This document shows, in pieces, positions 6,024 to 64,000 of a DNA stretch of 64,000 nt (position 1 is its first letter; every line of letters begins with the position of its first letter). The notes beneath the pieces were generated by a model. The model was not told the origin of the DNA and made no database searches. It was given only the letters and a program-made list of their open reading frames with translations. The translations under genes and the position numbers were made by a program. The DNA lies in IMG/VR virus record IMGVR_UViG_3300045988_078724, positions 31,033 through 95,032 of that record; one strand, written 5' to 3'. This DNA is from a virus.

Positions 6024-7286
6024 TTATACGGAAATCCGTACCGGGTTCCACCAAAACCCTCTACCTTTTGGTAACATCGTTACATCAAAGGATTCTTTTT
6101 CCGATTTACGGATGATGTTAAAAGCACCATTGATATCAGCATTAATAATACTACCAGAAGAAGTTTTAAACAATCCTCGTTTAATCCTTCTTCCTTTGTA
6201 AGATTCATGTTTACAAATCCGTTCATTATCCAAAAAGCTACATTTTGAAGTATAAGATTCTTCAACGATCTTAACATTAATACCTTCTAATGTCGCTTTA
6301 TACGATACCATACTGATAAACATATTAAAAGGAATAGATACAAAGTTTTGATTATTTCGTTTTCCGATATTGATCTCTTGTTTCCAGCATTTGTTATGAC
6401 CGATTATGATCGTATTAATACCATTGGAAACTACGTGATTAATCAATATCCTACTTGCCTTATGAAGATAATCCTTGATCTTGTTATTTCTTTTGTTGGT
6501 TAATGACCTGATTTGTTTTGAAATTTGTTTGTTATCTTTTAACTTAGATTTTAAGTATGCTAATTTCTTATTATAATACTGGTTGATAGACTTCAGTGGT
6601 CTACCATTGATGATAAAACAAGAACCGGTGTTTGAAACACAAGAGGCTAAATTATCTAATCCTATGTCGATACCAAGGTAGTTTCCATTATCTGACATAA
6701 GATTCTTTTCCTTCTTATTGTAAACTATTTCAAGAACAATATACCCATTCTTAGGAATGAATCTAAGTTGTTGAATATTTTGTTTATTGGTTCTTGTCGT
6801 GAAAGAGAATTGCTTAGGTAACTTAACAACACCTTGTTTTATCCATTTTTGAGAAAAAGCTATGGTTGTAAAAACAGCAGGAAACAAACCATCTTTGTTA
6901 AGATACTTAGGTATTCTAACAAATTCGGAATACTCACCTCTATTCCTTTTATTTAGAAGATTGAAGAAAGATTTGAAGTTTCTATCAACCATCATCAACA
7001 CTTGTTGAGCAACAGGTGTTGGTAAAGCACGATAGTCAACATCATTTTCTGCTCTTAGTTTCTTTTCAAGAGAATAGTAGTTGAGATATTTGTACTTTAC
7101 AGTATTATCATCCTTGTATTGAAAATAGTGTTGTCTAACAACATACAATCCTTTATTGTATAAGTTTTTACACTTATGCAATAGGTCATAAAGTTCATTA
7201 TAATAAACAGAACTTGGCTTGATTGTATGTTGTTCGACTAATCTCATGACACAAATGTAGGAATTATTATCTATATATAAAAACAA
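6024..7286 (-). CDS. tnpB: TnpB-like RNA-guided nuclease (IS200/IS605 OrfB family), 420 aa
   Basis: C-terminal RuvC-III-like motif [21 protein letters not shown] motif, [10 protein letters not shown] RuvC-I-like motif; paralogous to ORF 17149..18339. Confidence 0.85.
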   Translation of the reverse strand: [420 protein letters not shown]

Positions 7287-17148: not shown

Positions 17149-18339
17149 ATGAAACTTGTTGAAAGACATATAGTTAAAGACAACTGGTTTGAGGATATAT
17201 GCCTCAAATCTGGTTTGTTGTACAATTATGTTCTTTACAACATTCGTCAAGGAGTCTTTTCTGGTAACTACTTAAAGGAGTTTGATTTATCAAACAAACT
17301 TTGCAAAGAAAACCAATTTGATTTCAGGAATTTACCTAATCATGTTTCACAGCAGGTGATTAAACAGGTATTTAAAAACATAAAATCCTGGATGAGATTA
17401 AAGAAAGATTTTGAAAAGAATCCTTCGAAATACGGTAATCATCGTCCTCATCTTCCTTCGTATAAGAAGGGCAAGAAACAAAACATGGTTGTTTTTACTA
17501 ACTGTGATTGTAGGATAAAGGATGATGGTTATATCCATTTTGTCAAAAACACAATTAAACCGATCAAAACAAATGTAAAGAAAGATGAATTAAAACAAGT
17601 TAGAATCATACCTCAAGCCACCTGTTATGTAGTAGAGGTAGTTTATGAAAGAAAGGAAATTGATCTTGGTTTAGATAAAGACAATTTTCTTTCGATTGAT
17701 TTAGGATTGAATAATTTATGTTCATGTATTAGCAATGTAGGATTAATTCCTTTCATTGTAAACGGACGGATTATGAAATCATTTAATCAATGGTACAATA
17801 AGAAGAAAGCTAAGTTGATGTCTTTTGTTGGTGATAGAGGATCTTCAAATAGGATAAGAAGAATCACTTTGTTTAGAAATTGTTGGATAGAAGACAAGTT
17901 GCATAAGATAAGCAGATATATTGTCAACTTCTGTAGATCAAACAACATAGGAACAATCATCATCGGATTAAATAAGGAATGGAAACAGGAAATCAATATT
18001 GGTAGGCGAAATAACCAACATTTTGTTTCTATTCCTCATTCAAAGTTAATAGATAAGATTGTTTACAAAGCAAAGTTATTAGGAATCAATGTTGTTATTC
18101 ATGAAGAATCCTATACATCAAAGATAGATCATCTTGCTTTTGAACCTCTAAAGAAACAGGAATCCTACTTAGGAAAAAGAAAGAAACGTGGATTGTTTCA
18201 AAGTTCAATTGGAAAACTGATCAATGCAGATATTAATGGATCAATTGGAATAGCAAGAAAAGTAATTGGTGATTCTTTTATTGGAAAGATAATCGATAGT
18301 GGATTTGTGTTTAATCCAATTAGAGTAAATACTTTGTGA
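17149..18339 (+). CDS. tnpB: TnpB-like RNA-guided nuclease (IS200/IS605 OrfB family), 396 aa, diverged paralog of 6024..7286
   Basis: [10 protein letters not shown] (RuvC-I), [49 protein letters not shown] (RuvC-III); ~50% identity by eye to TnpB-1. Confidence 0.85.
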   Translation: [396 protein letters not shown]

Positions 18340-22700: not shown

Positions 22701-25700
22701 ATGGAAAAGTGGGATGCTGAAAATTCGGAACTGGAATTTAGCGAAAGTTATGCCACAAGAATGGAATCCATATACAAAAAGGCTGAAGAAGAATTAGGGC
22801 ATCCGGTTTCTCAAACAACCAAAGAATACCTTAATGCCCTATCCAGGCAAAAACGGATATTGAGGCAGCCTTTTATTGATAGCGGTGGTAATTTTGATGA
22901 GGTTGCCTATTTTAAAAGCAGCAATTACGAAGAAGAAGGACTGCTTCGTAAACAACGTAAGGAAGCAGCTTCAGAATACATATATGTAGGAACCAGGAGA
23001 GTGGAAAAAACCGGCGACCAACTTAAGATGGCCAAAGAAATACAAGCCATAAATGAAGTTTGGAGAAAAGAATCAAATAATGCCACTAATGCCGTATCAG
23101 AATCGTTTTTGCAAAAATTAAGAACGATTCAGAGCGAGTCGGGAGGAGAAGCTGCGCTGAAGACACTTATGTTGGGGGGTCACCTGTCATTCAACGATCG
23201 GTTTTGGAATGACGTAGAATCGGAACAGTCGGCGCGTACCGAATCAAATAACAAGGCTTCGTATCTTAAAATGGCGCATGATATCATTAGTTCTACGACA
23301 AGTGATAGAGATGCGACTGACGTGGACTCGATTGTAAAAGATATAGAAAAAAATAAGGCCATTATCAAGGAAATAATCGGAAACAATCGCGATGTGGCTG
23401 ATATCGGAGAAATTAACGAAGCGACATTTACCTTATCTGAAAGAGATGCTTTTAGGGCCGCATCTGAAGCTATTGAAGCCGATTACGCTATCTTAATAGA
23501 TTATGCTAAGATGGTGGGTCTTGAAGATATTGATAAGTACCTTACTAAAAGCAGTAAGGCTGAAAACGAAGTAAATCAGTCTTATTTAAATGCTCTTGCT
23601 GACTCCAAGGAAGTGGAATGGAAGTTCGTACAACGTCATACTACGGCGAAGAAAGCAAAAAGGATTCAGGCTTTAAGGGATAAGCTGTTTAAGGCTGCTG
23701 ATAACCGATATCTGTTTACCGTATCTGAAACCAACTACCTGTCAGAAAAGCTTGGTATAAGCAAAGAATTAGACGGTAGAGATTTTAGGAATGCTGTTAA
23801 TGCTAAGATGGCCAGCTTATTTTTAAATAATACAAGGGAAGAGGGCATAGAAGAGGCCAATGCTATTGTTAATGAATTTGCCAGGAGCCAGGTTTTTTCG
23901 TACTATAAACGCATGACTCCTACCGGATATGCGGCTATGATCGACAAAATCGGTCGAGGTGAGATAGATGTGGCGCAGATGGTTAAGGACGTACAAAACG
24001 GTACATCCACCCAAGATTATGGCATGGACATATCGTACCTGTCTTTCGATCCTGCAAGGGCATGGGTGGCTGAATCTGAAGCCGAAAATAGCGGCCGTAA
24101 TCCTGATTTTGTAAAAGATCATGGGTATGGTCATCGAATGCCTAAGAAAAGCCTGTATCGTGATGAATCGTATTTCAATGACTTTGGTATCAAGTATGAT
24201 GCTGGCGGTAATGAAGTTGCTACTAAAAACGTAGAGCAGTGGAATATGATTCAAAAACTCAAGGAAATAAAAAGACAATCCCTTGATCTATACAAAGAGC
24301 AGAGTCCGAACCTGTATGCTATTCCACAGATATCCAAACAAGACATAGAACGTGTAGAAGGATTGGGTATTAACTTCAAAAATACAGTTCGTAATTTTGT
24401 ATCAGATTTGTGCCTGGACAGAGTAGACGATTCTTTATACGGTAAAACCAGGCAAGGAGAAGTGTATGATCCGGAAGACAGACTTAGGTCTATACCTAAA
24501 TACTACATATATGAATTGGAGAACCAAGATGATGTATCTCACGATTTTGGCTACTCTTATTCGATGCTTATGATGCAGTCATCGTTATACAACGAAAAGC
24601 AGAAGTCTATAGAGCTTGCCCAAGGACTGGAACAGATGTTACTGAACAAGCAATTTGAAGGCGGTAAGAAGGCTGAAGCAACCCAAGCATATCAGATGTT
24701 CAGGGACTTCTTCAACGATCATTATTATGGCATTAGGATGAACACCAAAAAACTTACAGTGAACATCGGAGGATATACGGTAGACCTTACAAGAATTATG
24801 ATGGCTGTTGAAAGGTTTATGTCGGTCATGAACCTGGCACTGTCTCCGTTTGTGGCAGCTACCGGCGCCTTAACAGGTCATATCAACCTCATCATGGAAT
24901 CTGCCGTAGGACAGTATATAAGCAAAGACTCCCTTAAATACGCATCGGCTGAGTTTTCACGCCTTGCGCCATCTTGTATAGCAGAAACCGGAGACATAGA
25001 TAGGAAAAGCAAATTATATGTCATAGGTGAGAGAATGGGGATATTCAATATCCGAAATCGTATGTATGGTGCCGGATACAATAGAGCGGCCAGGACCTTA
25101 ATGCGTTCACCTATGTATGCTTTTATGGAAATCCTGAACTACCCTCTTGATCCGCAGGTTATGATTGCTACTATGGACAATGTTCGTTATTACAAAGGCC
25201 GGTTCTACACGTTCCAAGATTTCAAGATGGAAAAAGAACGCAATAAAGAACAGAGTACCATAAAAAGAGAATGGAACGCATTAAAAGATCGTACTTTATG
25301 GAGTATGGTAGATGTCGTGGATGGGAAGGTGGTTGTAAAGCCCGGATCGGGTGTTACTGTTGAGGAAGTTGAAACCCAGATGGCTATAACCAGGAATCAA
25401 GTCCGTAGCTTGTCGCAGATATGTAACGGATCTTTGAATGAAGAAAACCGAACTGCCGCATCGCGCAACTGGATAGCCAGGTTCATGACCGCCCACCGAG
25501 GATGGTTGGTGCTGGCGGCTCAACGTCTGTGGAAAAGACGTGGCTTCAATTTCCAGACAATGCAAGAAGAGGAAGGACTGTCAATTACGTTAAAGAATAT
25601 GATAGCCAAAACATTTAGCCTGGCTTCCGAGTCTGGTATGAAAAACATCATAGATGCCTGGAACGAAAATAAAGACAATATGAATGAGGTAGAGAAAACC

Positions 25701-30893: not shown

Positions 30894-31250
30894 TCATATT
30901 ATTCCTTCCAAATTTACTTTAATAGAACCATTTATGGTTTTAATGCTCCCATCTATGGTTGAAATCACATCATCTATATCATTTATAATGCCTTCCATGT
31001 CATCAACCACCTCCTCCATATCAGTTACAGCCCGATCTGATTCCCAATATCTTTCTGAGTCTTGTAACGATTCCGGTATATTATCTCTCGCCTCCGTCTC
31101 TTCATCTAAAATCATATCAATATCATCTTTGGCTGAATTTATGTTGTGCTTTAACTCCGATAACTTTGATTTGATGTATTCAAAATCTGTTTTATACTTA
31201 TTTACATTGTTAATAACATCTAATATTCTTTTTCTTCTCTTGTTGTTCAT
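30894..31250 (-). CDS. acidic coiled-coil protein (118 aa)
   Basis: ORF, Asp/Glu/Ile-rich. Confidence 0.4.
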   Translation of the reverse strand: MNNKRRKRILDVINNVNKYKTDFEYIKSKLSELKHNINSAKDDIDMILDEETEARDNIPESLQDSERYWESDRAVTDMEEVVDDMEGIINDIDDVISTIDGSIKTINGSIKVNLEGII

Positions 31251-50783: not shown

Positions 50784-51521
50784 TCATTCTTCTGAATTTT
50801 CAGCAGTTCCTAAAAGATATTCATTGCCCTCAAAAGGAATGCAACAATCCCATAATGTTCCATTGGAACATTCATGCTTATAAGACAATCCATCAGAATC
50901 GTCCACAATTTCCCTTGCAAACAAGCTGATATGCCATTCTTTATCGTCCTCGTCTCTTACCAGCACTTTGTCAAACGGCTTAAAATCATATTTCGGCTCT
51001 TCTTTAATCCCGAAGAAGCGTTTCAGATATTCTTTTGCTTTAGGATTTTCGCTTTTCTTTAACGCTTTAATCATCTTCTGTTTTTCCGAATCTGTTGCAA
51101 GTCTATAACATTCTATGTGGTTTTCGTGTGCAGCCAAATCATCCAATATATTAAGACTTGTTCCCGCTGCAAGACTCGCATACAAAGATGTTAAATATTT
51201 CCCATGCATATTTAAAATAAAAATATAACTTCCATCTTTGTTGCTTAACACATCTCCATCTTTAAATGTAGTATATTCCGGGACTTCAAGAAGGAGGCGA
51301 TTTTCGCTGCTAAATGCTTTTCCTGTAGCAGAAAACCAATCTGCCGATACAGAAATAGAATGAATTACAACCAATAACGGACAAATTGACGAATTGTCTT
51401 CATATACTATTTCTGCTCTATTTCGTCCTTTCTCTGTCACAATACGACCTGCTATTTCCCCTATGTTTATTTTTTTCGCCGTTTCTAAATCAAACGGGAT
51501 TGTTACCATTTTATATTCCAT
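50784..51521 (-). CDS. hypothetical protein, paralog A of tandem pair
   Basis: Shares PKYDFKPF(D/E)(K/R)VLVR ... CIP(F/Y)EGNE(Y/H)LLGT and N-terminal motifs with 51871..52662. Confidence 0.55.
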   Translation of the reverse strand: MEYKMVTIPFDLETAKKINIGEIAGRIVTEKGRNRAEIVYEDNSSICPLLVVIHSISVSADWFSATGKAFSSENRLLLEVPEYTTFKDGDVLSNKDGSYIFILNMHGKYLTSLYASLAAGTSLNILDDLAAHENHIECYRLATDSEKQKMIKALKKSENPKAKEYLKRFFGIKEEPKYDFKPFDKVLVRDEDDKEWHISLFAREIVDDSDGLSYKHECSNGTLWDCCIPFEGNEYLLGTAENSEE

Positions 51522-51870: not shown

Positions 51871-52662
51871 CTAAAAATGTTTGTTAGTTCCTAAAAGATG
51901 TTCGTTCCCTTCGTATGGGATACATTGACTAAATCCTACCCCTCCTAAGCATTCGTATTTATTATCTCCTCCTGATTCTCTGGAAAATAGATGCAATTTC
52001 CACCTCTCTTGGTTAGTTCTTCTTACCAGCACCCGTTCAAATGGTTTGAAGTCATATTTCGGCATCTCATCTAATAGATACTCATATTCACTTAAATATC
52101 GTTTTATTATATCTATTTTTCTACTGTCTTCGGCTTTTATAATCTTTTCTGCTAAAAATTTCTTCTCTTCTTCTATAGCCTTTCTTACATACCGATTTTT
52201 ATCTCCGTTATACACATTAGTCCATGTTTTGATATAATCAAACACAATATCTCCAGATGTTACCATTCCACATATACTTCCCATTACCCCTTTGGTAATA
52301 AGTCCATCATATATGAATTGATATCCATTAGCGCTTGTTAATACATCTCCTTTCTTGAAATACGCTCCAGCCTCTACCCTCAATTCCAGAGTGGTGCCGC
52401 CAATAATACAACCTTCCGTGTTGGCATATATAGCACTTATCCCATATCCATCTTTTTTTACAAAAAGCAAATTATAAGGACCTGCACAGTCTTTCGACTC
52501 ATATACAAATTCTATTTCAATATTATCAATTAATACCGAACCTTCTATTTCTCCGCTTTTAATTTTTCTCGCCGTATTTAAATCAAACGGAACAATAATT
52601 GCATTTTCCATATTTTTCTTGTTTTTAGTTGTTATAAAATAAGATGGGTTACTTAAACCCAT
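51871..52662 (-). CDS. hypothetical protein, paralog B of tandem pair
   Basis: see paralog A; 3' end carries a 21-bp tandem duplication. Confidence 0.55.
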   Translation of the reverse strand: MGLSNPSYFITTKNKKNMENAIIVPFDLNTARKIKSGEIEGSVLIDNIEIEFVYESKDCAGPYNLLFVKKDGYGISAIYANTEGCIIGGTTLELRVEAGAYFKKGDVLTSANGYQFIYDGLITKGVMGSICGMVTSGDIVFDYIKTWTNVYNGDKNRYVRKAIEEEKKFLAEKIIKAEDSRKIDIIKRYLSEYEYLLDEMPKYDFKPFERVLVRRTNQERWKLHLFSRESGGDNKYECLGGVGFSQCIPYEGNEHLLGTNKHF

Positions 52663-53726: not shown

Positions 53727-54134
53727 TTAATTGTTTAACTTACCTTTATCATATGACATTCTCTTTTCGTATTTTTCAATACGTTCGGTTATCATATCGC
53801 AGAAGACTTGCCCCTCTTTTTCGGAACCTCTGAAGTAACCAACCATCTTCAGAATATTTCCGTCAAATTCATGGACAAACTTGTTATAATAATGTTCACC
53901 CATTACCCGTCCGTATTTTTCTACGAACAAATCCTTGTCCAGTGATTCATCCTTAAAGCAACGGTTGTAATCCCATCTTACGATACGAAACAATGTTTCA
54001 AAATTCAATCTTTCCATATCTTGTATTTTATGGATTTCCTCACATTCTTCATCCGTTAATCCAGTGTAATCATCATTGATTAACGGACAAGCCCAACAAG
54101 ATGGCAACCTGTATCTTATTACTTTTATGCTCAT
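53727..54134 (-). CDS. hypothetical protein (listed ORF trimmed to internal ATG MSIKVIRYRL; upstream extension overlaps TnpB-3 insertion)
   Basis: First ~50 codons of the listed ORF overlap the LE/5' end of TnpB element 3 on the other strand. Confidence 0.45.
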   Translation of the reverse strand: MSIKVIRYRLPSCWACPLINDDYTGLTDEECEEIHKIQDMERLNFETLFRIVRWDYNRCFKDESLDKDLFVEKYGRVMGEHYYNKFVHEFDGNILKMVGYFRGSEKEGQVFCDMITERIEKYEKRMSYDKGKLNN

Positions 54135-54149
54135 AGTTTTATGATTATT

Positions 54150-55385
54150 TAACCAACAAAACCACCATACTTTAGAAGGTAGATGAATTGGTTTGATTAA
54201 TTTTGAATCAAAATTACAGATAAAAAAAATGATTTCATACAAATACAACATATACCATTCCAGGAAAACGAAGTATCTTGTCAAGATGCTTCGTGAATGT
54301 TGTTTTGTATGGAATCATGCGTTAGCTCTACAACGTAGGTATCACAAACTGTTTGGGAAATATATCTCAGTTGGCAAAATGAAGAAGTATTTTGCCAAAA
54401 GAATTAAAAGAAATCTTCTTCATTCTCAAACAACACAAGAAATACTTGAACGTCTTGATGAATCTTATAATCGTTTCTTTAAGAAGTTAGCTAAACGACC
54501 TCCTAAGTTTAAATCACCGGAGAAATTCAACTCTTTTGTTTTCAAACAAGGTGGGTTTACCCTAAATGGTAATAGTCTAACAATTAACAAAGGAAAGAAA
54601 CGATTTAGATTTTCATACAGTAGAGTCTACGAAGGTAATGTTAAACAAATTAGAATAGTTAGAGAAACCTGTTCACGTTTTAGTTTGATTGTAGTTACAG
54701 ATCATAATCCTATAAGCTCTTATAGAAAGACACATGATGGTGCATCTATCGGATTGGATTTTGGACTAAAAACTTATTTAACTAAAAGCGATGGTAGCAA
54801 AATTGATTCTCCTCTATTCTTCAAACAATATCAAAATAAGATTAGAAAACTAAACAAACGGTTTTCTAATACAAAGAAAGGATCCAATAATAGAAGAAGA
54901 AAACTGTTTGAACTCCAACAAACGTATCGTAAAATAAACGATCTTCGATCGGATTTTCAATGGGGATTAGCACACCAGTTATGCAAACAGTATGATTATA
55001 TTTTTATTGAAGATCTAAACATTGAAGGAATGAAACGTTTGTGGGGAAAGAAAGTTTCCGATCTTAGTCATTCTTCTTTTATTGATAAACTAATGTATGT
55101 TTCTTCAAAGTATGGAGTAACGATACACAAGATTGACAAATGGTATCCTTCTTCCAAAACTTGCGAATGTGGCTGCATTAATAAAGGTCTGTCGTTACGC
55201 GACCGCACGTGGGTGTGCCCAGCGTGCGGCGCAATTAACGACCGTGATGCTCTTGCAGCCCGTAATATACTTCGGAAGGGCATTTCCGAATTGGAGAGCA
55301 AGAGTAATTCCAGCGATAGCAACATCGGGGTTTCTTGCGCTTGTATCCAAGAATCCCATTTGCTTTAGCGATGGGAGTATGTCAA
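54150..55385 (+). mobile_element. IS200/IS605-family TnpB-only element 3 (no tnpA)
   Basis: LE-side hairpin ggtttgattaattttgaatcaaaatt (contains TTGAT); right end defined by loss of similarity to the orphan copy after ...gagtatgtcaa (55385). Confidence 0.5.
54229..55368 (+). CDS. tnpB: TnpB-like RNA-guided nuclease with C-terminal zinc finger
   Basis: CECGCINKG...WVCPACGAINDRDALAARNILRKG (zinc finger + RuvC-III); ATG 54229 preferred over listed TTG 54193. Confidence 0.85.
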   Translation: MISYKYNIYHSRKTKYLVKMLRECCFVWNHALALQRRYHKLFGKYISVGKMKKYFAKRIKRNLLHSQTTQEILERLDESYNRFFKKLAKRPPKFKSPEKFNSFVFKQGGFTLNGNSLTINKGKKRFRFSYSRVYEGNVKQIRIVRETCSRFSLIVVTDHNPISSYRKTHDGASIGLDFGLKTYLTKSDGSKIDSPLFFKQYQNKIRKLNKRFSNTKKGSNNRRRKLFELQQTYRKINDLRSDFQWGLAHQLCKQYDYIFIEDLNIEGMKRLWGKKVSDLSHSSFIDKLMYVSSKYGVTIHKIDKWYPSSKTCECGCINKGLSLRDRTWVCPACGAINDRDALAARNILRKGISELESKSNSSDSNIGVSCACIQESHLL

Positions 55386-55405
55386 TAATCTACAGTTACT
55401 ATCTT
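55244..55405 (+). ncRNA. omegaRNA (reRNA) scaffold of TnpB-3 plus candidate guide
   Basis: 3' end of tnpB through right end; ~130 nt repeated with compensatory changes at 61837-61967; guide candidate taatctacagttactatctt (55386-55405). Confidence 0.45.
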
Positions 55406-55766
55406 CAAATACCGGAACCTTCCCTTGTTCTCTAAAATAAGCAGTGGCCACCTTGAAAGCATAAAGCGGATTTACTTTCTGGATTTCTTGTTGTGATTTA
55501 TAGAAAGATAGCGGCTTACATACATAGAAATTTTCATTGCCAAGACTTCCAAAAAGCCAATCCATACCACCTTCATCACAATTAGTGCCACCCAGTATTA
55601 TTAAATCACATCCGGTCTTCCGGGTTCCCAAAATAAATGCCTTGTTCTTATTCTCTGGCTGCATAAATATCTCCTTGTCGATTTTAAACCAGTCGCTCTG
55701 GCGACTCTCCACATCCCGGCGAACTATTTCGTCAATTTCAAGTGCATATTCTTCTTGTGTTTTCAT
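55365..55766 (-). CDS. hypothetical protein (133 aa); last 6 codons encoded by the IS right end
   Basis: C-terminal LTYSHR* is read from 55368-55385, which is part of the repeat shared with the orphan omegaRNA copy. Confidence 0.5.
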   Translation of the reverse strand: MKTQEEYALEIDEIVRRDVESRQSDWFKIDKEIFMQPENKNKAFILGTRKTGCDLIILGGTNCDEGGMDWLFGSLGNENFYVCKPLSFYKSQQEIQKVNPLYAFKVATAYFREQGKVPVFEDSNCRLLTYSHR

Positions 55767-55834
55767 AAGATATGTTATTAAATGTAGTTATATAATTTCT
55801 GGATAAAATCACTCATGGCATCAGCATACACAAC

Positions 55835-56644
55835 CTATTCTTCTAAGCCATTCTCTATCATGACTTCCTTTATCAATTCATCTGTCTCCTCGTAACATCC
55901 CCAGCAAGAATCAACCTCTTCCCATTCTTCGCAATCTTCATCCTCTCTTGATTCGTCTTTGTATTTCTTGGTAAATGCTACCTTCTTTTCAAGAACGTAC
56001 CCTTTTACATCTCCCCACATCCACATACCTATGGACTTTACCTCATTATCTATAATCTTGGCACAATCTTCTTTCCAGTTCTCTTTTTCATTATATATTT
56101 TTTCATATCTATCTTTTGTGACATACGCTATCCCCTCCACATAATCTCCTTGACTATGACCCCTTGTTGACCACTCTTTTACTAATACGTCTTTTTCGTA
56201 TTCGTTTATGATTTTTAATAGATCTTCGTCATCTAAGCATTCTATTAATTCCGTCTTATAATCCAAATCCTCCAAATCTTCTGGAAGAAATTCTTCTTGC
56301 ACGTATGAAAAGCTCTCATGCCTCAATTCCCACAAATGAGTACTTCCATTGTATATAAATGAAACATTATTTGCTTTTCCTTCTTTTAGGTATTTTATAA
56401 TATCTTCCTGCTTTACATGCTCCACCACAATAGCTTCAAGCACATCTCTTAATCTATGATTATTATTGTAGAAGAAAGTTTTCCAATTGCATTCATCATG
56501 TAATCTACTGGTATCGGAATATTCAAAAAAATACAATCCGCACATATCCCAATTAATTATAGGACTTTCACCGCTATAATCGTCATAATAGATCTTAATG
56601 CGATAATTGCCTACTTCTTTTGTTGTAATAATTCTGTCTTCCAT
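55835..56644 (-). CDS. hypothetical acidic protein (269 aa)
   Basis: ORF. Confidence 0.5.
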   Translation of the reverse strand: MEDRIITTKEVGNYRIKIYYDDYSGESPIINWDMCGLYFFEYSDTSRLHDECNWKTFFYNNNHRLRDVLEAIVVEHVKQEDIIKYLKEGKANNVSFIYNGSTHLWELRHESFSYVQEEFLPEDLEDLDYKTELIECLDDEDLLKIINEYEKDVLVKEWSTRGHSQGDYVEGIAYVTKDRYEKIYNEKENWKEDCAKIIDNEVKSIGMWMWGDVKGYVLEKKVAFTKKYKDESREDEDCEEWEEVDSCWGCYEETDELIKEVMIENGLEE

Positions 56645-56650
56645 GTCTTT

Positions 56651-56903
56651 ATGTTTTAAATAGTTCCTAACTTTTTATCAATAAATTCATCTATTGCATC
56701 ATAGTATGAGCCATCACAATTTCCATATTTTTCTGTAAACTCTTTAGCCCACTCTCGAATGATGTTAAACGCCTGTTCCCTGCTATACCTCCTATCCTTC
56801 CAATAATGGTATCATCTCCGTACTTTGTGCTAATTTTATCAGGCATTTCGTCGAAGACAAGGAACTTCGATTCTCCTGACTCTACTAAATATAATAGCTT
56901 CAT
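56651..56903 (-). pseudogene. small gene with apparent frameshift (or sequencing error) near 56815
   Basis: Listed frame ends MAHTMMQ*; alternative frame gives clean helical ...REQAFNIIREWAKEFTEKYGNCDGSYYDAIDEFIDKKLGTI* through 56651. Confidence 0.3.
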
Positions 56904-57024
56904 GATTTATCTCTTTAGATGTGAGTTATGCTGATTTGTATTGTTTTCGTCGTTCACTATCTGACTAATATACGACCCTGGCCACAAACAGGCGGACCGA
57001 CCTCATGGCAGGGCAGGCGCCGCC

Positions 57025-57213
57025 TTACTCTGGCTGTTCTACCCACTCCCTGTATCCTACATTAAAACCAATAGGATCATACCTTTTGATCATAGTGCCA
57101 TAATTCTCTCTACCGCAATACCTGTCCTTTCCTCCAATGATCCATGCCTCATCGTCTCTATCTGGAGATATTGAGTTAAGATACTTCTCATAATCTTTTC
57201 TACTCTTTCCCAT
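57025..57213 (-). CDS. hypothetical protein (62 aa)
   Basis: ORF; GC-rich motif GGCGGCGCCT right after stop. Confidence 0.4.
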   Translation of the reverse strand: MGKSRKDYEKYLNSISPDRDDEAWIIGGKDRYCGRENYGTMIKRYDPIGFNVGYREWVEQPE

Positions 57214-57553
57214 CTTTGTCTTGATTTAAGCAATAGTTAATAAAATAAGCAACCTGTTCATTTTCCCCTGGATTGCTATAATCATAAAAAGTCATATCAG
57301 TATAATCCAGCATGACTACACGAAAATCGTTTTTTTTGGCATACACTTCCGTTAAATACATAGGATTTTCATCAATTTCTATTACCACCGGAAACTGATC
57401 ATCAAAGTCAAATACATCATTAGTTTCTTTAAATTCTTTAAACTCTTTAAATTTTAGCTTTATAATTCCATTGTTTTCTGCTAATGCTTCTTTGATGTAC
57501 TTTAATCTTTTTGCATTCAGACTGGCCTCTGCTTCTTCTATTTCTTTATACAA
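57200..57553 (-). CDS. hypothetical protein (117 aa)
   Basis: ORF. Confidence 0.45.
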   Translation of the reverse strand: MYKEIEEAEASLNAKRLKYIKEALAENNGIIKLKFKEFKEFKETNDVFDFDDQFPVVIEIDENPMYLTEVYAKKNDFRVVMLDYTDMTFYDYSNPGENEQVAYFINYCLNQDKDGKE

Positions 57554-57562
57554 TTTAAGATG

Positions 57563-57907
57563 TTAAAACTCTTGCAGGTTACACTTTACAAGCCGCTTCC
57601 CGTCGTGGAAAAAGTAAGAGTGGTTGCCAAAAGAAAGGAAAATAAGTTCTTTAATACAAGCTTTTGGTATGGTCATTATACCAGAAGCTTGTTCTAATGT
57701 ATTGGAATTACCAACAGCATAATGACCAGCTACAGATATAGATCTCTCATTTTCATGTACAACAATACCATAGCTCTCTATTTCTGATATATCTGTTTCG
57801 TAATCCTCCAGATCTACCCATGTTCTTTCTGATAGGTTGGAATCTATCCACTTAACTAATACCCGCTTGTTTAAAAGCGATTCTTTTTTATGTCTATTCT
57901 TTTTCAT
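57563..57907 (-). CDS. hypothetical protein (114 aa)
   Basis: ORF. Confidence 0.45.
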   Translation of the reverse strand: MKKNRHKKESLLNKRVLVKWIDSNLSERTWVDLEDYETDISEIESYGIVVHENERSISVAGHYAVGNSNTLEQASGIMTIPKACIKELIFLSFGNHSYFFHDGKRLVKCNLQEF

Positions 57908-57943
57908 AACTTGTTATATTGATTTTTTAGTAAACGAAAAGAG

Positions 57944-57975
57944 ATTGTGCCAGCATTTTGACACAATCTCAATTA
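57944..57975 (-). terminator. rho-independent terminator (minus strand)
   Basis: gagattgtg-ccagcattttga-cacaatctc 9-bp stem; on minus strand followed by ttttcgttt. Confidence 0.5.
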
Positions 57976-58030
57976 TATGGGAATAATACTAAGGAAAAGT
58001 GTAAAGTGGTATATAATTACCACAATTTAT

Positions 58031-58558
58031 TTAGAACCATATTCCACTATATTCCACTATATTTATGTTATCGAATTTTTCTTTTATAATATCCAAGACT
58101 CCGTACTCGTTTGTTATCATAACATGCTTCCCTGGCTTCATTCTCCACAGATTAAAATACCTTGTCACATTCATAGTGGCATTAAATAATGATATTTCAT
58201 ATCTTGTGTTTCCATTTTTATCACGCCCTATGTTTTTAATATAACATATGTCTGGCTTGTATTTGAAATAATTAAAAAGCCTATACCATCCCTTCCCGTT
58301 ACATGTTTCACGATTCCATATTCCAGCAAGCTTCCTATATCCCCTTACCGGTATTTTCTCTATTTCTTTTGGTACGATCTTGACATACTCTCCTTCTCCG
58401 ATTGGTATGGTCATATTACCTGCCTCTTCCGTGCAAAAGTATTCTATTTCAGATGCCATTCCTTTATACACATAGAACCGGTATAGGTTCCCGTCAGGGT
58501 CTACCCGATCCATATAGTATAATATCACTTTGTCTACTTCTATTCTTATTTTCTCCAT
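58031..58558 (-). CDS. hypothetical protein (175 aa)
   Basis: ORF. Confidence 0.5.
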   Translation of the reverse strand: MEKIRIEVDKVILYYMDRVDPDGNLYRFYVYKGMASEIEYFCTEEAGNMTIPIGEGEYVKIVPKEIEKIPVRGYRKLAGIWNRETCNGKGWYRLFNYFKYKPDICYIKNIGRDKNGNTRYEISLFNATMNVTRYFNLWRMKPGKHVMITNEYGVLDIIKEKFDNINIVEYSGIWF

Positions 58559-58635
58559 CTTTGTCCTCCTTTCTTGAATAAAAAAACGGCACCTATCTTC
58601 GCAGACCAGTGCCGGTAACTAACTTACATGGAAAA

Positions 58636-59040
58636 CTACTTAACCTCAACTAATTCTACAGAGTTGTAGAATTTAGTGAAGCTACCAACAAATTCTCTTA
58701 TATTTTTATATTCTTCTGGTCGTTTTCTGTTACCATCTTTTATGTAATTAACCCACAGTCTATCCCCTATGTTCTTAATCGCATTTTCTATAGTAAATTC
58801 GTCGCTGACACACATTAAACACGAAGATCCGGTTTTCTTATGTGGTTTATATATCCTTGAAAAAGACCACATCTTTATCCTGTCGTATATATATCCGTTG
58901 TTGGGATAAACGAATCCTATCCGGCTGTCACCTTCTTTGGCGTAAAACACACCTGGTTCCTTTCCGCCTTTCTTATACACAATAAATCCTTTTTCTTTTA
59001 AGATCTTAGCTATCTTATTTATCTTGTTCTCTACGTTCAT
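58636..59040 (-). CDS. hypothetical protein (134 aa)
   Basis: ORF. Confidence 0.5.
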   Translation of the reverse strand: MNVENKINKIAKILKEKGFIVYKKGGKEPGVFYAKEGDSRIGFVYPNNGYIYDRIKMWSFSRIYKPHKKTGSSCLMCVSDEFTIENAIKNIGDRLWVNYIKDGNRKRPEEYKNIREFVGSFTKFYNSVELVEVK

Positions 59041-59497
59041 TGTAATGCAAGTATTTAAAAACGACCCTCATTATAGTTGCGAAGTTCTCCACCTTAACCC
59101 ACTCATGAGCTACTGCTCTAAGTACGGATGTTTCGTATGTCGGAATATCGTCTTCTTCAATCACCTTACAAGAAGCCAGAACTCCTTCAGTCGGCTTTAG
59201 TCCACGGTCATGCAGCTCGCAGAGACCGTCCGGCTGGCGGAATGCGCACCACCCGTCTTTCTCTGTTGGCTGGATCATCGCTATTGGTTTTTCTTTCACT
59301 GCAAGATACCCTACCATCCACATCGTTTCTTTTAACCTGTCAGCGTATCCGGCATCTATGATAGCCTCTATGTCTTTTGGCGTACCAATACAAGGAACCT
59401 TACACATATTCTTACATTTATCACATGTACAAGGTTGCTCCCATTTGTTATGATCTATGCCTACCAACTTCTTTATCCGTTCTACTTCTTCTTTCAT
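59015..59497 (-). CDS. YkgJ/CxxCxxCC-family-like zinc/iron-chelating domain protein (tentative)
   Basis: CTCDKCKNMCKVPC cluster and DGWCAFRQPDGLCELHDRGLKP...C second cluster. Confidence 0.4.
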   Translation of the reverse strand: MKEEVERIKKLVGIDHNKWEQPCTCDKCKNMCKVPCIGTPKDIEAIIDAGYADRLKETMWMVGYLAVKEKPIAMIQPTEKDGWCAFRQPDGLCELHDRGLKPTEGVLASCKVIEEDDIPTYETSVLRAVAHEWVKVENFATIMRVVFKYLHYNERREQDK

Positions 59498-59498
59498 A

Positions 59499-59783
59499 TT
59501 ATACTATTTCTGTTAGTTTTTCATAATACAACTTCATTTCCGGTGAAGCGTATTCCATGAATGCTTCGAATAAGTAGGGTACCTCTATTATCATATTCAC
59601 ATTGCAACCTTCTGCCTGTGAAAGCGATTCAAGATCATTGCTGTACGAACACGTTACATAAGCTCCTACATTAAACACATGCAAATCTAATCTTGCATAT
59701 TCCATACATAAATCTAACGCCTTAAACAAGTTCTCTACCTCAATCTCCTGAAATAGGTTTATAAACATTCTTAAATCCATCAT
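59499..59783 (-). CDS. hypothetical protein (94 aa)
   Basis: ORF. Confidence 0.45.
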   Translation of the reverse strand: MMDLRMFINLFQEIEVENLFKALDLCMEYARLDLHVFNVGAYVTCSYSNDLESLSQAEGCNVNMIIEVPYLFEAFMEYASPEMKLYYEKLTEIV

Positions 59784-60163
59784 TTTATCACCCTTTCTAC
59801 GTGTTTAATTAATACTGCCGCCATTCCATTGCCGGTTTTTATCGCACATTCCGACCCTTTTATCCATTCTACACATCCTACATACGTTTCCGTAGCATGA
59901 AATCCGGGATTATATTTTCCAGATGTAGTGAACTCTACTGTATCCCCCACCTTCAGATCATCAAAAGCAATAGACCACGTGGTCCAAATTCTGTCATGTC
60001 TCCCAGGCTGAATGGCCCCGATTACGCCTTTTTTACGACCGTTTTTTATTGCCCTTAGTATTATCTTCCTATCACCTTCGATAAGGCTGCAAAAGCGCCC
60101 GTAAAAGGTTAAATCAACCTGTTTTCCTCCTATTTCTTCTCTTATTTTTGTTATTCTGTTCAT
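59780..60163 (-). CDS. hypothetical protein (127 aa)
   Basis: ORF. Confidence 0.45.
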   Translation of the reverse strand: MNRITKIREEIGGKQVDLTFYGRFCSLIEGDRKIILRAIKNGRKKGVIGAIQPGRHDRIWTTWSIAFDDLKVGDTVEFTTSGKYNPGFHATETYVGCVEWIKGSECAIKTGNGMAAVLIKHVERVIK

Positions 60164-60407
60164 TTTCTGATTTTGTTTTATTTTTTTCTTTGTTTTTTCT
60201 ATCTTCTATAGAAGATGATAATAACATTATCTTTTCTATGTTACTTTTTGACTGTAAAAAAGAATCGCATTTCATTACTACTACCACCTTCTTAAGTTTC
60301 CCATTATCGTATAGCGATACACGCATCATGTTTTGCACCTCGTCCACTATCAGACCTGGAGTAGTCTTAGCCATTTTGCGTAGTTTATTATACTCCGGTC
60401 TTTCCAT
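60114..60407 (-). CDS. hypothetical protein with K/N-rich low-complexity tail (97 aa)
   Basis: ORF overlapping both neighbours; doubtful. Confidence 0.3.
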   Translation of the reverse strand: MERPEYNKLRKMAKTTPGLIVDEVQNMMRVSLYDNGKLKKVVVVMKCDSFLQSKSNIEKIMLLSSSIEDRKNKEKNKTKSENEQNNKNKRRNRRKTG

Positions 60408-60699
60408 TTCCTCTGTTTATTACTCTATAGTATTTATCCTTATCCCCTTCTTCCAACTTCTCCAAGTAGAAAATTCCATCATGCAAATGAGACAAACAAA
60501 ATCTGTATCCGTATTTCTGCGTTCTTCTTACATGATCCCGCAATCTTATCTCTTCACTTTTGTCTTGTACTTTGATTTTAATACTGTCTCCTTCTTTGAT
60601 TGTGTATAAAATAGTTTGAATCTCTTCTTTTTTCATCTTATAAAATATTTTAACGGCAGCACCTATGCTCACGCACCAATACTGCCTTATGTTTAACAA
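60388..60699 (-). CDS. hypothetical protein (103 aa)
   Basis: ORF. Confidence 0.45.
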   Translation of the reverse strand: MLNIRQYWCVSIGAAVKIFYKMKKEEIQTILYTIKEGDSIKIKVQDKSEEIRLRDHVRRTQKYGYRFCLSHLHDGIFYLEKLEEGDKDKYYRVINRGNGKTGV

Positions 60700-61509
60700 T
60701 TAAATACTTAACTCTTCAATGGTCAAGCCTTTTTCTTTTGCCCATTTTAACATTGCGCATAATTCTGTTTCTGACTTATATTTCGGATCACGCCACGCCC
60801 ATCCGTATTTATCCAGAACATGGTGATATAATTCGTCGGCTTCTGCTGTATGCACGTCATTGAATAAATACTCCGAACCTTCTGGTATAAGCGTTTCTGT
60901 TGTTGCGAAATCATGATATTGTAGATAATGGAAGGCGTTCAATACTACACCATGCCACGCATCTTCAGCTACGAACCCAAATTCTTTTACAAAAGCCAAA
61001 GATAGATACATATTTAATAGCACTGCCGGATCATATCCTGAATTTGGATTCTTTTCTATTATCTCTTTCTCAAATTCCTTTAGATTTTCAGGCCCGAAAA
61101 ATATGTAACCCTGAACTGATTTATAATTTACCTCAGCATATTTTTTACACCTATCATCATCAATGATCTTACCAATGTTGGATAACATCGCCTGTCGCCA
61201 CCCATCACAGAACTCCACCTCTACCTCCATCCAATCAGTACCATAGTTATACTCTCTTGGGTGTCCGACTGATGTTACCTTTATATCTTTTACACCATAT
61301 ACTAAAAGACGTTTTTTAACCTCGTCCGCCCATTCTTGCACATAAGGCATGAACGCATTACAATAAGAATCAAAATCAAAATCCGATTCCTCTTCATATT
61401 CCGGCATCTCATCATATTTCTGTGAAAAGAAATGACGCGGGTCTGCTACTGTTTCATAAAAACTTACGTTAATGAAACAAAATTCGTTGGTTGTCGTTTT
61501 TAATATCAT
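60700..61509 (-). CDS. hypothetical protein (269 aa)
   Basis: ORF. Confidence 0.5.
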   Translation of the reverse strand: MILKTTTNEFCFINVSFYETVADPRHFFSQKYDEMPEYEEESDFDFDSYCNAFMPYVQEWADEVKKRLLVYGVKDIKVTSVGHPREYNYGTDWMEVEVEFCDGWRQAMLSNIGKIIDDDRCKKYAEVNYKSVQGYIFFGPENLKEFEKEIIEKNPNSGYDPAVLLNMYLSLAFVKEFGFVAEDAWHGVVLNAFHYLQYHDFATTETLIPEGSEYLFNDVHTAEADELYHHVLDKYGWAWRDPKYKSETELCAMLKWAKEKGLTIEELSI

Positions 61510-61760
61510 AACTTTTTGTATTTACGTACATTTTTCTTGCCATAGAATCTACACATGGCACGAATCTGACTATAAAATACTTTTGTCCTCCTGGCCTCAA
61601 AGTATTTAAACATTTCTTCATTCTTTGTTTCCCACACGTAATCCGTTTGAGAACTCATATGATTTTTATCCTTGCGTGAATAATGGTAATATGATACCAC
61701 AACTCGTTTCGCACCATTCCTTACAGGTACGATATTCACATCTATGTTATTATCTGTCAT
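61506..61760 (-). CDS. hypothetical protein (84 aa)
   Basis: ORF. Confidence 0.45.
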   Translation of the reverse strand: MTDNNIDVNIVPVRNGAKRVVVSYYHYSRKDKNHMSSQTDYVWETKNEEMFKYFEARRTKVFYSQIRAMCRFYGKKNVRKYKKL

Positions 61761-61836
61761 CTTATTATTGTTTTATGTTATTTAATGGTAATACTGATCC
61801 CATTTATGTGTCAGATGATAATTAAACATTATATTT

Positions 61837-61987
61837 GCCCTGTCTTGCGACCTCGGAAGGGCATTTCCGAGTTGGAAAGTACGGGTGATTCCAACGATTG
61901 TAAAACCGGGGGTTCCGTACGTTTGTATCCAAGAATCCCGTTTGCTTTAGCGATGGGAGTATGTCAAGCATTATACAAATACAAAGA
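61837..61987 (+). ncRNA. orphan omegaRNA-like element (TnpB-3 right-end/omegaRNA scaffold copy without nuclease gene) plus distinct candidate guide
   Basis: ~130 nt alignable to 55258-55385 incl. cggaagggcatttccga, tttgtatccaagaatccc, tttgctttagcgatgggagtatgtcaa; stem halves gcaaga/tcttgc replaced by gtacgg/ccgtac; downstream 20 nt differ. Confidence 0.5.
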
Positions 61988-62070
61988 GCGCATACCTTCA
62001 CAGGCCGGCGCTCCTTTCAATAAAAATGAAAAAACTAACATTACATAAACATATTGTTTTCTGCTCTTTA

Positions 62071-62304
62071 TTACAATACTTTTGTCCCACAATTGTTATA
62101 TCGTCCGTACTCTTTTTTCGTATCATTCAAGATTTCAAACACCATCTTCTTATGATCTTTGTTTGGTAACTTGTCTTTAACAGCCGATATCACGCTCGCT
62201 ATAGACGTAAAGCCTGAATCTGTTATTGAACACAACAACAAACCTCTGTCGTCGTCTGTGCTTATCGCTGACGCCTTTATAATATCATTCTTATATATTC
62301 TCAT
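62071..62304 (-). CDS. hypothetical protein (77 aa)
   Basis: ORF. Confidence 0.45.
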   Translation of the reverse strand: MRIYKNDIIKASAISTDDDRGLLLCSITDSGFTSIASVISAVKDKLPNKDHKKMVFEILNDTKKEYGRYNNCGTKVL

Positions 62305-62327
62305 AACTCTTTTATTTTATTGTTTGT

Positions 62328-63817: not shown

Positions 63818-64000
63818 CTATTGAATTTTGTAGAATAAACTCACATTATGCTGTTTTAAAGCACTGTAAGTCTTAATTTTGTAGGAAAACCCTACATAAC
63901 GCTGTTTTAAAACGCTGATCTGTTGAATTTTGTTGGAAAACCCTACATAACGCTGTTTTAAAACGCTGATCTGTTGAATTTTGTTGGAAAACCCTACATA
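63818..64000. repeat. tandem direct repeat array, 51-bp unit, >=3 copies, truncated by window end
   Basis: unit ctgttgaattttgttggaaaaccctacataacgctgttttaaaacgctgat repeated exactly 63920-63970 and 63971-64000(partial), with degenerate copies upstream; each unit has palindrome gttttaaaac flanked by acgctg direct repeats. Confidence 0.7.

Follow-up and report, generated by a model that had tools for sequence, protein, structure and literature searches.

A TnpB-only insertion sequence of the IS200/IS605 family at a gene overlap in an epsilon crAss-like phage, and the gene tail derived from it

The DNA considered here, called the window throughout, is a stretch of 64,000 nucleotides (nt) from the IMG/VR virus record IMGVR_UViG_3300045988_078724 (positions 31,033 to 95,032), in which a plus-strand gene for a TnpB-family protein, TnpB-3, separates two minus-strand genes, referred to as gene A and gene B. 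With a probability of about 0.9, the segment that carries it is a non-autonomous, TnpB-only insertion sequence (IS) of the IS200/IS605 family (IS1341-type), inserted 3′ of a TTTAT motif where genes A and B overlapped as ATGA, and the C-terminal tail of gene A is derived from it. The DNA belongs to an epsilon crAss-like phage; in GenBank the record nearest to it is crAssE-Sib (listed as phage csAssE-Sib, OR575929.1, human gut), with 75–90% identity across parts of the region. Every feature of the element has a precedent and the established model of IS200/IS605 and TnpB holds throughout; it is the host, a crAss-like phage, that is unusual. An insertion at this place had been proposed in a preliminary description drawn from the letters and their open reading frames (ORFs), and its claims are taken up below with the results that bear on them.

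Table 1. Position, strand and basis of the features discussed (aa, amino acids; TAM, transposon-adjacent motif; ωRNA, omega RNA; reRNA, right-end RNA; PATE, palindrome-associated transposable element)
Feature	Position in window	Strand	Basis or remark
TnpB-only IS200/IS605-family insertion sequence	54143..55385	+	vacant alleles, megablast breakpoints
TAM TTTAT (core TTAT)	54138..54142	+	directly 5′ of left end; vacant allele comparison
Left-end subterminal hairpin CCACC-atactttagaa-GGTAG	54162..54182	+	conserved across copies
Hairpin TTTGATT-aattttg-AATCAAA, 7-bp stem	54192..54212	+	element-internal, 50 nt inside
tnpB, 379 aa	54229..55368	+	Pfam, NCBIfam, ISDra2 alignment; ORF open from 54193
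ωRNA (reRNA) scaffold-like region, ~119 nt, five helices	55267..55385	+	RNAalifold covariation
Predicted ωRNA guide TAATCTACAGTTACTATCTT	55386..55405	+	first 20 nt beyond right end
Gene A, 133 aa	55365..55766	-	residues 1–127 native; 128–133 (LTYSHR) and stop IS-encoded
Gene B, 135 aa	53727..54134	-	start ATG 54134; ORF intact; weak DUF6926 N-terminus
191-bp internally deleted (PATE-like) derivative	61777..61967	+	repeat and vacant allele
TAM TTTAT of 191-bp element	61772..61776		
Predicted guide of 191-bp element, GCATTATACAAATACAAAGA	61968..61987		

The vacant allele and the limits of the element

The record crAssE-Sib has no IS at the gene A/gene B locus, where it reads TTCAT/TAGTCTGCAA (here and below a slash marks the insertion point), and its homologue of gene A, of 130 aa, has the ending NCRLMKI*. 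It was dropped as a direct vacant reference, as extra genes (of 101 aa, of 84 aa with DUF6926, and of 298 aa) stand between the homologues of A and B and both the TAM and the guide have diverged, and the vacant allele was therefore supplied by IMG/VR relatives. In these related epsilon crAss-like phages its plus strand reads ...GCTCATAGTTTTAT/TAATCTACAG..., or in extended form ...GCTCATAGTTTTAT/TAATCTACAGTTACTATCTT; in L040, L047, L055, L011, L015, L037 and others (L numbers label the sequences compared) the sequence, taken in the direction of the window's plus strand, is ...CTTTTATGCTCATAGTTTTAT/TAATCTACAGTTACTATCTTCAAATACC, with gene B directly after gene A. The left junction in the window is ...CATAGTTTTAT/GATTATTTAACC... 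(in short ...TTTTAT/GATTATTTAACC) and the right one is ...GGGAGTATGTCAA/TAATCTACAG... (in short ...GTATGTCAA/TAATCTACAG). Comparison with the vacant alleles L040, L047, L055, L011 and L002 gives an element of 1,243 bp whose insertion duplicated zero bases and lost zero.

In megablast searches the homology of the relatives stops exactly at 54142 and resumes exactly at 55386, in at least seven independent related phage contigs, and the vacant junction CTCATAGTTTTAT/TAATCTACAG is present as an exact 23-mer in 46 IMG/VR contigs, every one of which joins 54142 to 55386, as against five contigs with the filled left junction; since these breaks recur in at least seven contigs and the exact vacant 23-mer in 46, the pattern is not due to chance. 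The right end at 55385, as placed in the preliminary description, is borne out by both the vacant junction and the resumption of homology, and the uninterrupted allele for which that description advised looking in related phages confirms the IS-encoded C-terminus of gene A while correcting the TAM and the left boundary. The ends of the element, GATTATTT... and ...GTATGTCAA, form no terminal inverted repeats. Insertion 3′ of a fixed motif of 4–5 nt and without target-site duplication, as is proper to the IS200/IS605 family, is seen in vacant and filled alleles at two loci and at about 14 further sites preceded by TTAT.

The target was the region of the 4-base ATGA overlap of the co-oriented genes A and B, and not an intergenic or start region of 58 nt as had been supposed: the element split gene A at the boundary of codons 127 and 128, and 8 nt separate this point from the downstream ATG of gene B. 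The tnpB ORF is the sole long plus-strand ORF in a minus-strand block extending from about 27 kb to 63 kb, which agrees with the orientation described for it earlier.

Effects on genes A and B

The native minus-strand junction is AGA TTA/ATA AAA CTA TGA, so that the IS entered after TTA (Leu127), and the native stop of gene A (TGA) overlaps the start of gene B as ATGA. In the window, the frame of gene A continues on the reverse complement of 55365..55385 as TTG ACA TAC TCC CAT CGC TAA (LTYSHR*); these six codons and stop are the last 21 bases of the element, and the six residues take the place of three native ones, IKL, the C-terminus changing from ...NCRL-IKL* to ...NCRL-LTYSHR*. The right-end hairpin has a conserved CTTTAG loop, which holds the new TAA and, on the other strand, also provides the TAG of tnpB. 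The 21 bases encoding the tail are common to IS copies at unrelated sites and to the 191-bp element of Table 1.

A scan of IMG/VR found 258 relatives of gene A, and the best 80 of these 258 were examined. The LTYSH tail is lacking in 78 of the 80, and the usual relative has 130 aa, with NCRL followed by IKL, MKI, MKL, IKP or VKL; four end IILRYG/RVG, owing to deletions into the neighbouring gene. Only L012 ends LTYSHS*, and in it a 95%-identical TnpB lies immediately downstream, with the IS at the same site and with the change of R to S in the tail tracking a change in the right-end hairpin. No IS-free phage with an LTYSHR tail was found among the 80 loci, and the last six codons of gene A can be assigned to the IS, as the preliminary description had claimed. 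The variability of the native tail among relatives suggests that its change is tolerated. Gene A has no match in Pfam, PHROG or NCBIfam.

The gene B of L040 is 100% identical over aa 1–135, starting at the ATG that overlaps the stop of gene A, and the listed ORF 53727..54284 is to be trimmed to this ATG, as had been proposed. The accompanying claim that the start region was disrupted is, however, overstated, because the insertion left the gene B ORF, with its ATG and the 8 native bases before it, unharmed, and only the coupling of the stop of gene A to the start of gene B has been lost; the two genes are now 1.24 kb apart, with the antisense IS between them. Searches of genes A and B and their neighbours against Pfam, PHROGs and NCBIfam yielded no functional assignment, a DUF6926 match of gene B below threshold being the only lead.

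Gene B itself resembles an in-frame fusion, its first ~36 aa matching the N-terminus of an 84-aa DUF6926 gene and aa 34–135 a separate gene of 97 aa; in crAssE-Sib and most relatives the two parts are ~1.03 kb apart, with an ORF of 298 aa between them, and both the fused and the split arrangement are common in the population (window 53727..54134 as against L001 7127..8588 and L002 4390..5833). Just downstream of the neighbour of gene B, the minus-strand genes 50784..51521 and 51871..52662 share several DNA segments of 77–82% identity with a spacing of ~1.07–1.09 kb, which suggests a tandem gene duplication.

The transposon-adjacent motif and the left end

The TAM of the window (54138..54142), read on the minus strand, was once codons I-K in the native tail of gene A. 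In IMG/VR, TnpB-3 has about 290 relatives at 87–96% aa identity, of which 80 were examined; the ~14 distinct left flanks of copies with the canonical left end (GATTATTTAACCAACAAAACCACC...) all end in TTAT, ten of them in TTTAT and the rest in ATTAT or GTTAT, and the copies at other sites measure 1,240–1,243 bp and end in GTATGTCAA. The family consensus for the 3′ arm of the left-end hairpin is GGTGG, from which the GGTAG of the window departs by one stem mismatch; its CTTTAG loop resembles that of the right-end hairpin, CCCAT(t)TGC-ttta-GCGATGGG, and covariation is seen in the equivalent left-end hairpins of L242 and L243, which are distant relatives. Imperfect subterminal hairpins, another trait of the IS200/IS605 family, are present at both ends (CCACC..GGTGG and CCCAT..ATGGG, with loops of the CTTTAG type), and they covary in L082, L242 and L243. 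The hairpin at 54162..54182 is likely to be the recognition structure of the transposase TnpA, and likelier so than that at 54192..54212.

This second hairpin had been taken for that of the left end, with its TTGAT as the TAM; the hairpin is real, but TTGAT lies 50 nt inside the element, whose flank is TTTAT. Its loop and stem hold TAATTTTG (54198..54205), which fits the −7 promoter consensus of Bacteroidota, TAnnTTTG, and equivalent boxes, TATATTTG and TAAATTTG, precede tnpB in L242 and L243 (Prevotella and Cryptobacteroides relatives). Judging from these boxes, the region is probably part of the tnpB promoter and not a TAM. Sigma-70 promoters across the IS are at or below shuffle expectation, the models of the promoter and intrinsic terminator scans not being applicable to Bacteroidota.

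There is also a second subfamily with ~90%-identical TnpB (L085, L092, L101, L124, L127, L135 and others), in which an upstream ATATTCATATATGTATTTTT... replaces the canonical left end and which shows several different right flanks.

The TnpB-3 protein

The true start of tnpB is the ATG at 54229, since its relatives, including bacterial ones of 56% identity, begin there with MISYKY and the sequence upstream diverges. The protein exceeds the cut-offs of the family models PF01385 OrfB_IS605 (65 bits, cut-off 30.5), PF07282 Cas12f1-like_TNB (64 bits, cut-off 26.3) and NF040570 guided_TnpB (231 bits, cut-off 100), and matches PHROG 506 (E = 2e-88). Nearly the whole of it (aa 11–352) aligns with ISDra2 TnpB (8bf8/8exa; E = 3e-27), the catalytic positions being conserved, and an identity of about 25–30%, read off this alignment, is suggested. 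All the RuvC residues are present, D177 (GLDFG), E261 (FIEDL) and D338/D340 (NDRD), as is the zinc finger CxC...CxxC at aa 312–334 (CECGC at aa 312, CPACG at aa 330) by which TnpB-3 had been rightly typed; together with the family scores, the D-E-D triad and the zinc finger are the marks of a TnpB. The three RuvC motifs are aligned with D191, E278 and D361 of ISDra2 TnpB. No frameshifts occur in the about 290 phage copies mentioned above.

The left end is separated from the ATG of tnpB by 86 nt, too short for a TnpA gene, and the element holds no Y1 HUH transposase of the kind that autonomous IS605 and IS608 encode. As no TnpA is encoded, it belongs to the non-autonomous TnpB-only (IS1341-type) subgroup and not with autonomous IS605.

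Two further TnpB-family genes of the window were considered and rejected as sources of the end sequences: TnpB-1 (6024..7286, minus strand) is ~21% identical and has unrelated flanks, and TnpB-2 (17149..18339, plus strand) has no significant alignment to TnpB-3 and unrelated flanks as well. As aligned or read, the C-terminal regions of both have no CxxC zinc-finger cysteines.

The right-end RNA structure and its predicted guide

The scaffold-like region takes in the last 34 codons of tnpB and, on the opposite strand, the IS-encoded tail of gene A; its five helices end in a conserved AGTATGTCAA. Ten diverse right ends were compared by RNAalifold (the window IS, the 191-bp copy, three IMG/VR variants, a fecal phage scaffold, two Parabacteroides phages and two bacterial metagenome-assembled genomes, MAGs), and 20 of the 32 consensus pairs show compensatory double changes. 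In this alignment 95.6% of the cells are paired, the observed covariation is reached in 0 of 500 shuffles, and the covarying pairs fall to 0–6 when the partners are slid by 1–3 columns as a control; in the window copy the helices are intact. Such a conserved fold at the right end is, as far as alignment can tell, the signature of an ωRNA/reRNA scaffold, and what was found is the arrangement known for TnpB, with a predicted structured RNA over the 3′ end of tnpB that ends at the right end and has a predicted guide next to it.

The candidate guide adjoining the right end in the preliminary description retains its place, immediately 3′ of 55385; it is phage DNA, antisense to codons about 121–127 of gene A. 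The target predicted from it is found in element-free homologous genomes: TTTAT and the perfect first 16 nt of the guide are contiguous in 33 of the 62 anchored relatives (with 20 of 20 nt in 32 of these) and are split by the IS in the carriers. The remaining anchored relatives have TTCAT or TTCAC, or at least three mismatches in the first 12 nt.

The 191-bp derivative

The segment 55269..55385 is repeated at 61850..61967 with 80–92% identity, both copies ending ...GGGAGTATGTCAA. This second copy had served in the preliminary description as an orphan for locating the right end, and the right end is indeed shared; it is not, however, a mere right end, but a complete element of 191 bp with a TTTAT flank and a vacant allele of its own, CATCTTATTATTGTTTTAT/GCATTATA..., also given as CATCTTATTATTGTTTTAT/GCATTATATAAATACAAAGAGCGC (L176, L206, L184 and L235). 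It encodes no protein, keeps the whole ωRNA scaffold and ends in GTATGTCAA. As a short protein-less element with the ends and TAM of the family it resembles a PATE; copies at several sites would speak for a mobility of its own, but all 23 of its IMG/VR occurrences are at one site, and its left ~70 nt are without the canonical left-end hairpin. It is best read as an internal deletion, in situ, of a single insertion, which is not independently mobile and would need TnpB-3 in trans.

Carriers, scars and deletions

Apart from the window, the insertion is complete in IMG/VR 110030 (the same genome as ENA ORRL01000036), which is ~95% identical to the window over 54031..55782, that is, the IS with its immediate flanks; in 113417 it is cut at the contig end, and in 116552 there is a deletion on the right-end side. 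In 099418 (L250) and 118731 (L252) only a left-end remnant is left, 54143..54221 (79 nt), joined to 56314, a deletion having removed all that follows in the IS together with gene A and part of the gene after it. These scars show that more genomes once carried the insertion and that the phages can dispense with gene A, and the ~95% identity between the two carriers indicates an old polymorphism. Thus the insertion is an old polymorphism of low frequency, and its cognate target is common in the population.

A further kind of variation concerns IS copies that share a left junction and differ by deletions starting exactly at the right end (L098/L100/L140, L088/L128, L089/L091 and L082/L251). The deleted DNA ends in TAM-like sequences: ...TTTTTTAT/ for a deletion of 296 bp, ...TTTTTAT/ for 256 bp, ...CTTTAC/ for 129 bp, ...AGATAT/ for 12 bp and ...AACTAC/ for 3.25 kb. 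The last of these, in L082/L251, corresponds to window 55386..~58639 and adjoins the insertion of the window itself. Three of the deletion-derived junctions show a right end with an altered final base (GTCAT or GTCAC), and each deletion gives the ωRNA a new predicted guide. They could have arisen by a second insertion nearby followed by recombination, or by aberrant joining by TnpA. A TTAT at the end of the 3.25-kb deletion was sought and the idea was dropped, as the sequence is ...AAAACTAC/TTAACC, TTAC-like only, and an origin from a second copy and recombination is not established there.

Discussion

On the model of ISDra2 and ISGst2, the terminal ~119 nt of the element and the adjoining 16–20 nt of phage DNA would be transcribed together as an ωRNA, with which TnpB-3 would cut DNA that bears TTTAT directly before TAATCTACAG... 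Such a sequence would exist only in genomes without the element, either after its excision or in a co-infecting relative, and recombination with the IS-bearing copy could then restore the element or spread it. Transposition to new TTAT sites would require a Y1 TnpA in trans, presumably contributed from outside the element. It is conceivable, although we hold it only tentatively, that the IS family as a whole acts as an RNA-guided system of homing or exclusion between co-circulating epsilon crAss-like phages, with guides re-programmed by recurrent right-end deletions reaching to the next TAM-like motif, of which there are five cases. Homing into co-infecting phage genomes, or “non-restorative homing,” has been discussed as a theoretical possibility (PMC13565253).

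Some observations do weigh against the interpretation of 54143..55385 as a transposed TnpB-only element and against the mechanism attached to it: (i) no match to PF01797 (TnpA) was found among the 45 window ORFs of 100–240 aa, and the search of 185,579 species genomes gave no host copy of the IS, no close copy and no TnpA partner, the best matches (56% aa) being Prevotella and Cryptobacteroides MAGs which, by the position of their left-end hairpins, both look TnpB-only; (ii) in view of the mismatch in its left-end stem, the window copy may no longer be mobilisable; (iii) an Rfam scan of 53800..62300 returned no ωRNA-type family, just a weak chance match to a small RNA; (iv) and finally, the insertion could have spread by ordinary linkage and recombination and not by homing, two courses that the flank identities of about five carriers do not distinguish.

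Among the alternative explanations, that in which gene A has LTYSHR as its own native tail and the limit of the element lies upstream of 55365 retains next to no probability: no case supports it, as the only other tail of LTYSH type, in L012, is attached to the same IS and varies with its right-end hairpin, and it is refuted by the tails of the 80 loci, the vacant alleles, the copies at other sites that share the 21 bases, and the exact breakpoint of homology at 55386. It is also quite improbable that the IS-bearing state was ancestral and that the vacant alleles are products of precise excision by TnpA. Excision in the IS200/IS605 family is seamless, so that a vacant allele could not be told from a site never occupied, and the ~5% difference between two carriers and the scars in other genomes speak for a former presence; nevertheless, vacant junctions are far commoner than filled ones (46 to 5), they occur in divergent backgrounds such as that of crAssE-Sib, whose diverged TAM and guide cannot be excision products of this element, and the native ATGA coupling is a typical phage gene junction.

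The two remaining alternatives, which we consider about equally unlikely, grant the insertion and concern its present role. According to one, TnpB-3 has ceased to be part of a selfish transposon and the phage has kept it as an RNA-guided weapon or exclusion system against co-infecting relatives with the vacant allele, the 191-bp element furnishing a second guide; this accords with the intact catalytic residues, the missing TnpA, a lineage that resides in phages and was not seen among the host genomes searched, a perfect target in one of every two relatives sampled, a copy 6.5 kb away that has the ωRNA scaffold and another guide but no protein, and the fact that the concept exists in the literature as “non-restorative homing” (PMC13565253). 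The element has, however, every mark of recent transposition (~14 sites, flanks of TTAT and ends that are intact), and it is carried by a small minority of genomes at any one site, which suits a selfish IS better than a fixed function of the phage. According to the other, the window copy is an immobile, decaying relic with a non-functional TnpB and ωRNA, as the stem mismatch, the lack of TnpA and the deletion derivatives of the same insertion (L251, L250 and L252) might indicate; against this stand a full-length ORF of 379 aa with all its catalytic and zinc residues, the high identity to other phage copies free of frameshifts, and the intact RNA helices. The reading as a non-autonomous IS, inserted at the overlap of genes A and B, is the one retained here.

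Of the known systems, ISGst2 of Geobacillus stearothermophilus (TnpB2) is the closest in behaviour: its TAM TTTAT doubles as transposase target and nuclease motif, most of its copies are without tnpA, protein-less PATE-like copies carry ωRNAs for use in trans, the DNA just past the right end serves as guide, and a vacant site regains the element through homing (PMC10055086; Meers et al., 2023). The family, the TTTAT TAM, the absence of tnpA, the PATE-like carrier of a predicted ωRNA and the predicted guide beyond the right end are all shared; the differences are that ISGst2 is in a bacterial chromosome, whereas the TnpB-3 element is in a virulent-type epsilon crAss-like phage of Bacteroidota, with no cognate TnpA identified. 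RNA-guided cleavage is established for the TnpB/reRNA of ISDra2 from Deinococcus radiodurans (Karvelis et al., 2021; PMC8612924; structures 8bf8, 8exa, 8h1j), with which TnpB-3 shares the RuvC D/E/D, the zinc finger and a guide RNA scaffold that lies across the 3′ end of tnpB and runs as far as the right end. Unlike the present element, flanked by TTAT/TTTAT and with its own TTGAT internal and irrelevant, ISDra2 has tnpA and the TAM TTGAT. With IS608 of Helicobacter pylori there is in common the insertion 3′ of a tetranucleotide (TTAC in IS608, TTAT here) without duplication, as well as subterminal hairpins in place of inverted repeats, although IS608 is autonomous, with tnpA and tnpB, and the present element is TnpB-only. 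The right end of IS608 terminates in TCAA, as does that of the TnpB-3 element. With the IS1341-type elements there is agreement in being TnpB-only and in the structured RNA at the 3′ end of the gene, with no similarity of RNA sequence (no Rfam match). Non-coding RNAs overlapping the 3′ end of IS1341-type tnpB in sense were described in archaea and bacteria before their guide function was known (PMC4615843). As to crAss-like phages, two TnpB-family “transposases” have been reported in crAssE-Sib and some Epsilonunovirus genomes only, and the passages on the crAssE-Sib TnpB give no ends, TAM, ωRNA or insertion polymorphisms (PMC11054128).

The annotation of the region can thus be settled as regards the element (54143..55385), the ATG of tnpB (54229), the transposon-derived last six residues of gene A, the start of gene B (54134) and the TAM TTTAT. 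Uncultured crAss-like phages of the gut harbour an intact TnpB/ωRNA family in an actively polymorphic state, and its filled, vacant, scarred and deletion-bearing alleles, available in public metagenomes, constitute a natural data set on TnpB homing between viral genomes; the protein itself is a compact nuclease candidate of 379 aa, with a TTTAT/TTAT TAM and a defined scaffold of ~119 nt. In Parabacteroides faecis phage PF672P2 (L244, OP172820.1 93..1237) there is a TnpB element 64% identical at the DNA level, and in P. faecis phage PF672P1 (L245, OP172819.1 about 22912..23028) an apparent protein-less copy of the right end and ωRNA, ending in AGTATGTCAA; these cultured phages are possible experimentally tractable relatives of the TnpB-3 system.

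Other observations in the window

A tRNA-like stretch near 62320 was dropped, as ARAGORN finds no tRNA in the whole window. At 63821..64000 there is a tandem repeat of 51 nt (3.5 copies, 87% match, consensus TTGAATTTTGTAGGAAAACCCTACATAACGCTGTTTTAAAACACTGATAAG), which runs off the end of the window and in which each unit holds a short hairpin, GTAGG-aaaac-CCTAC.

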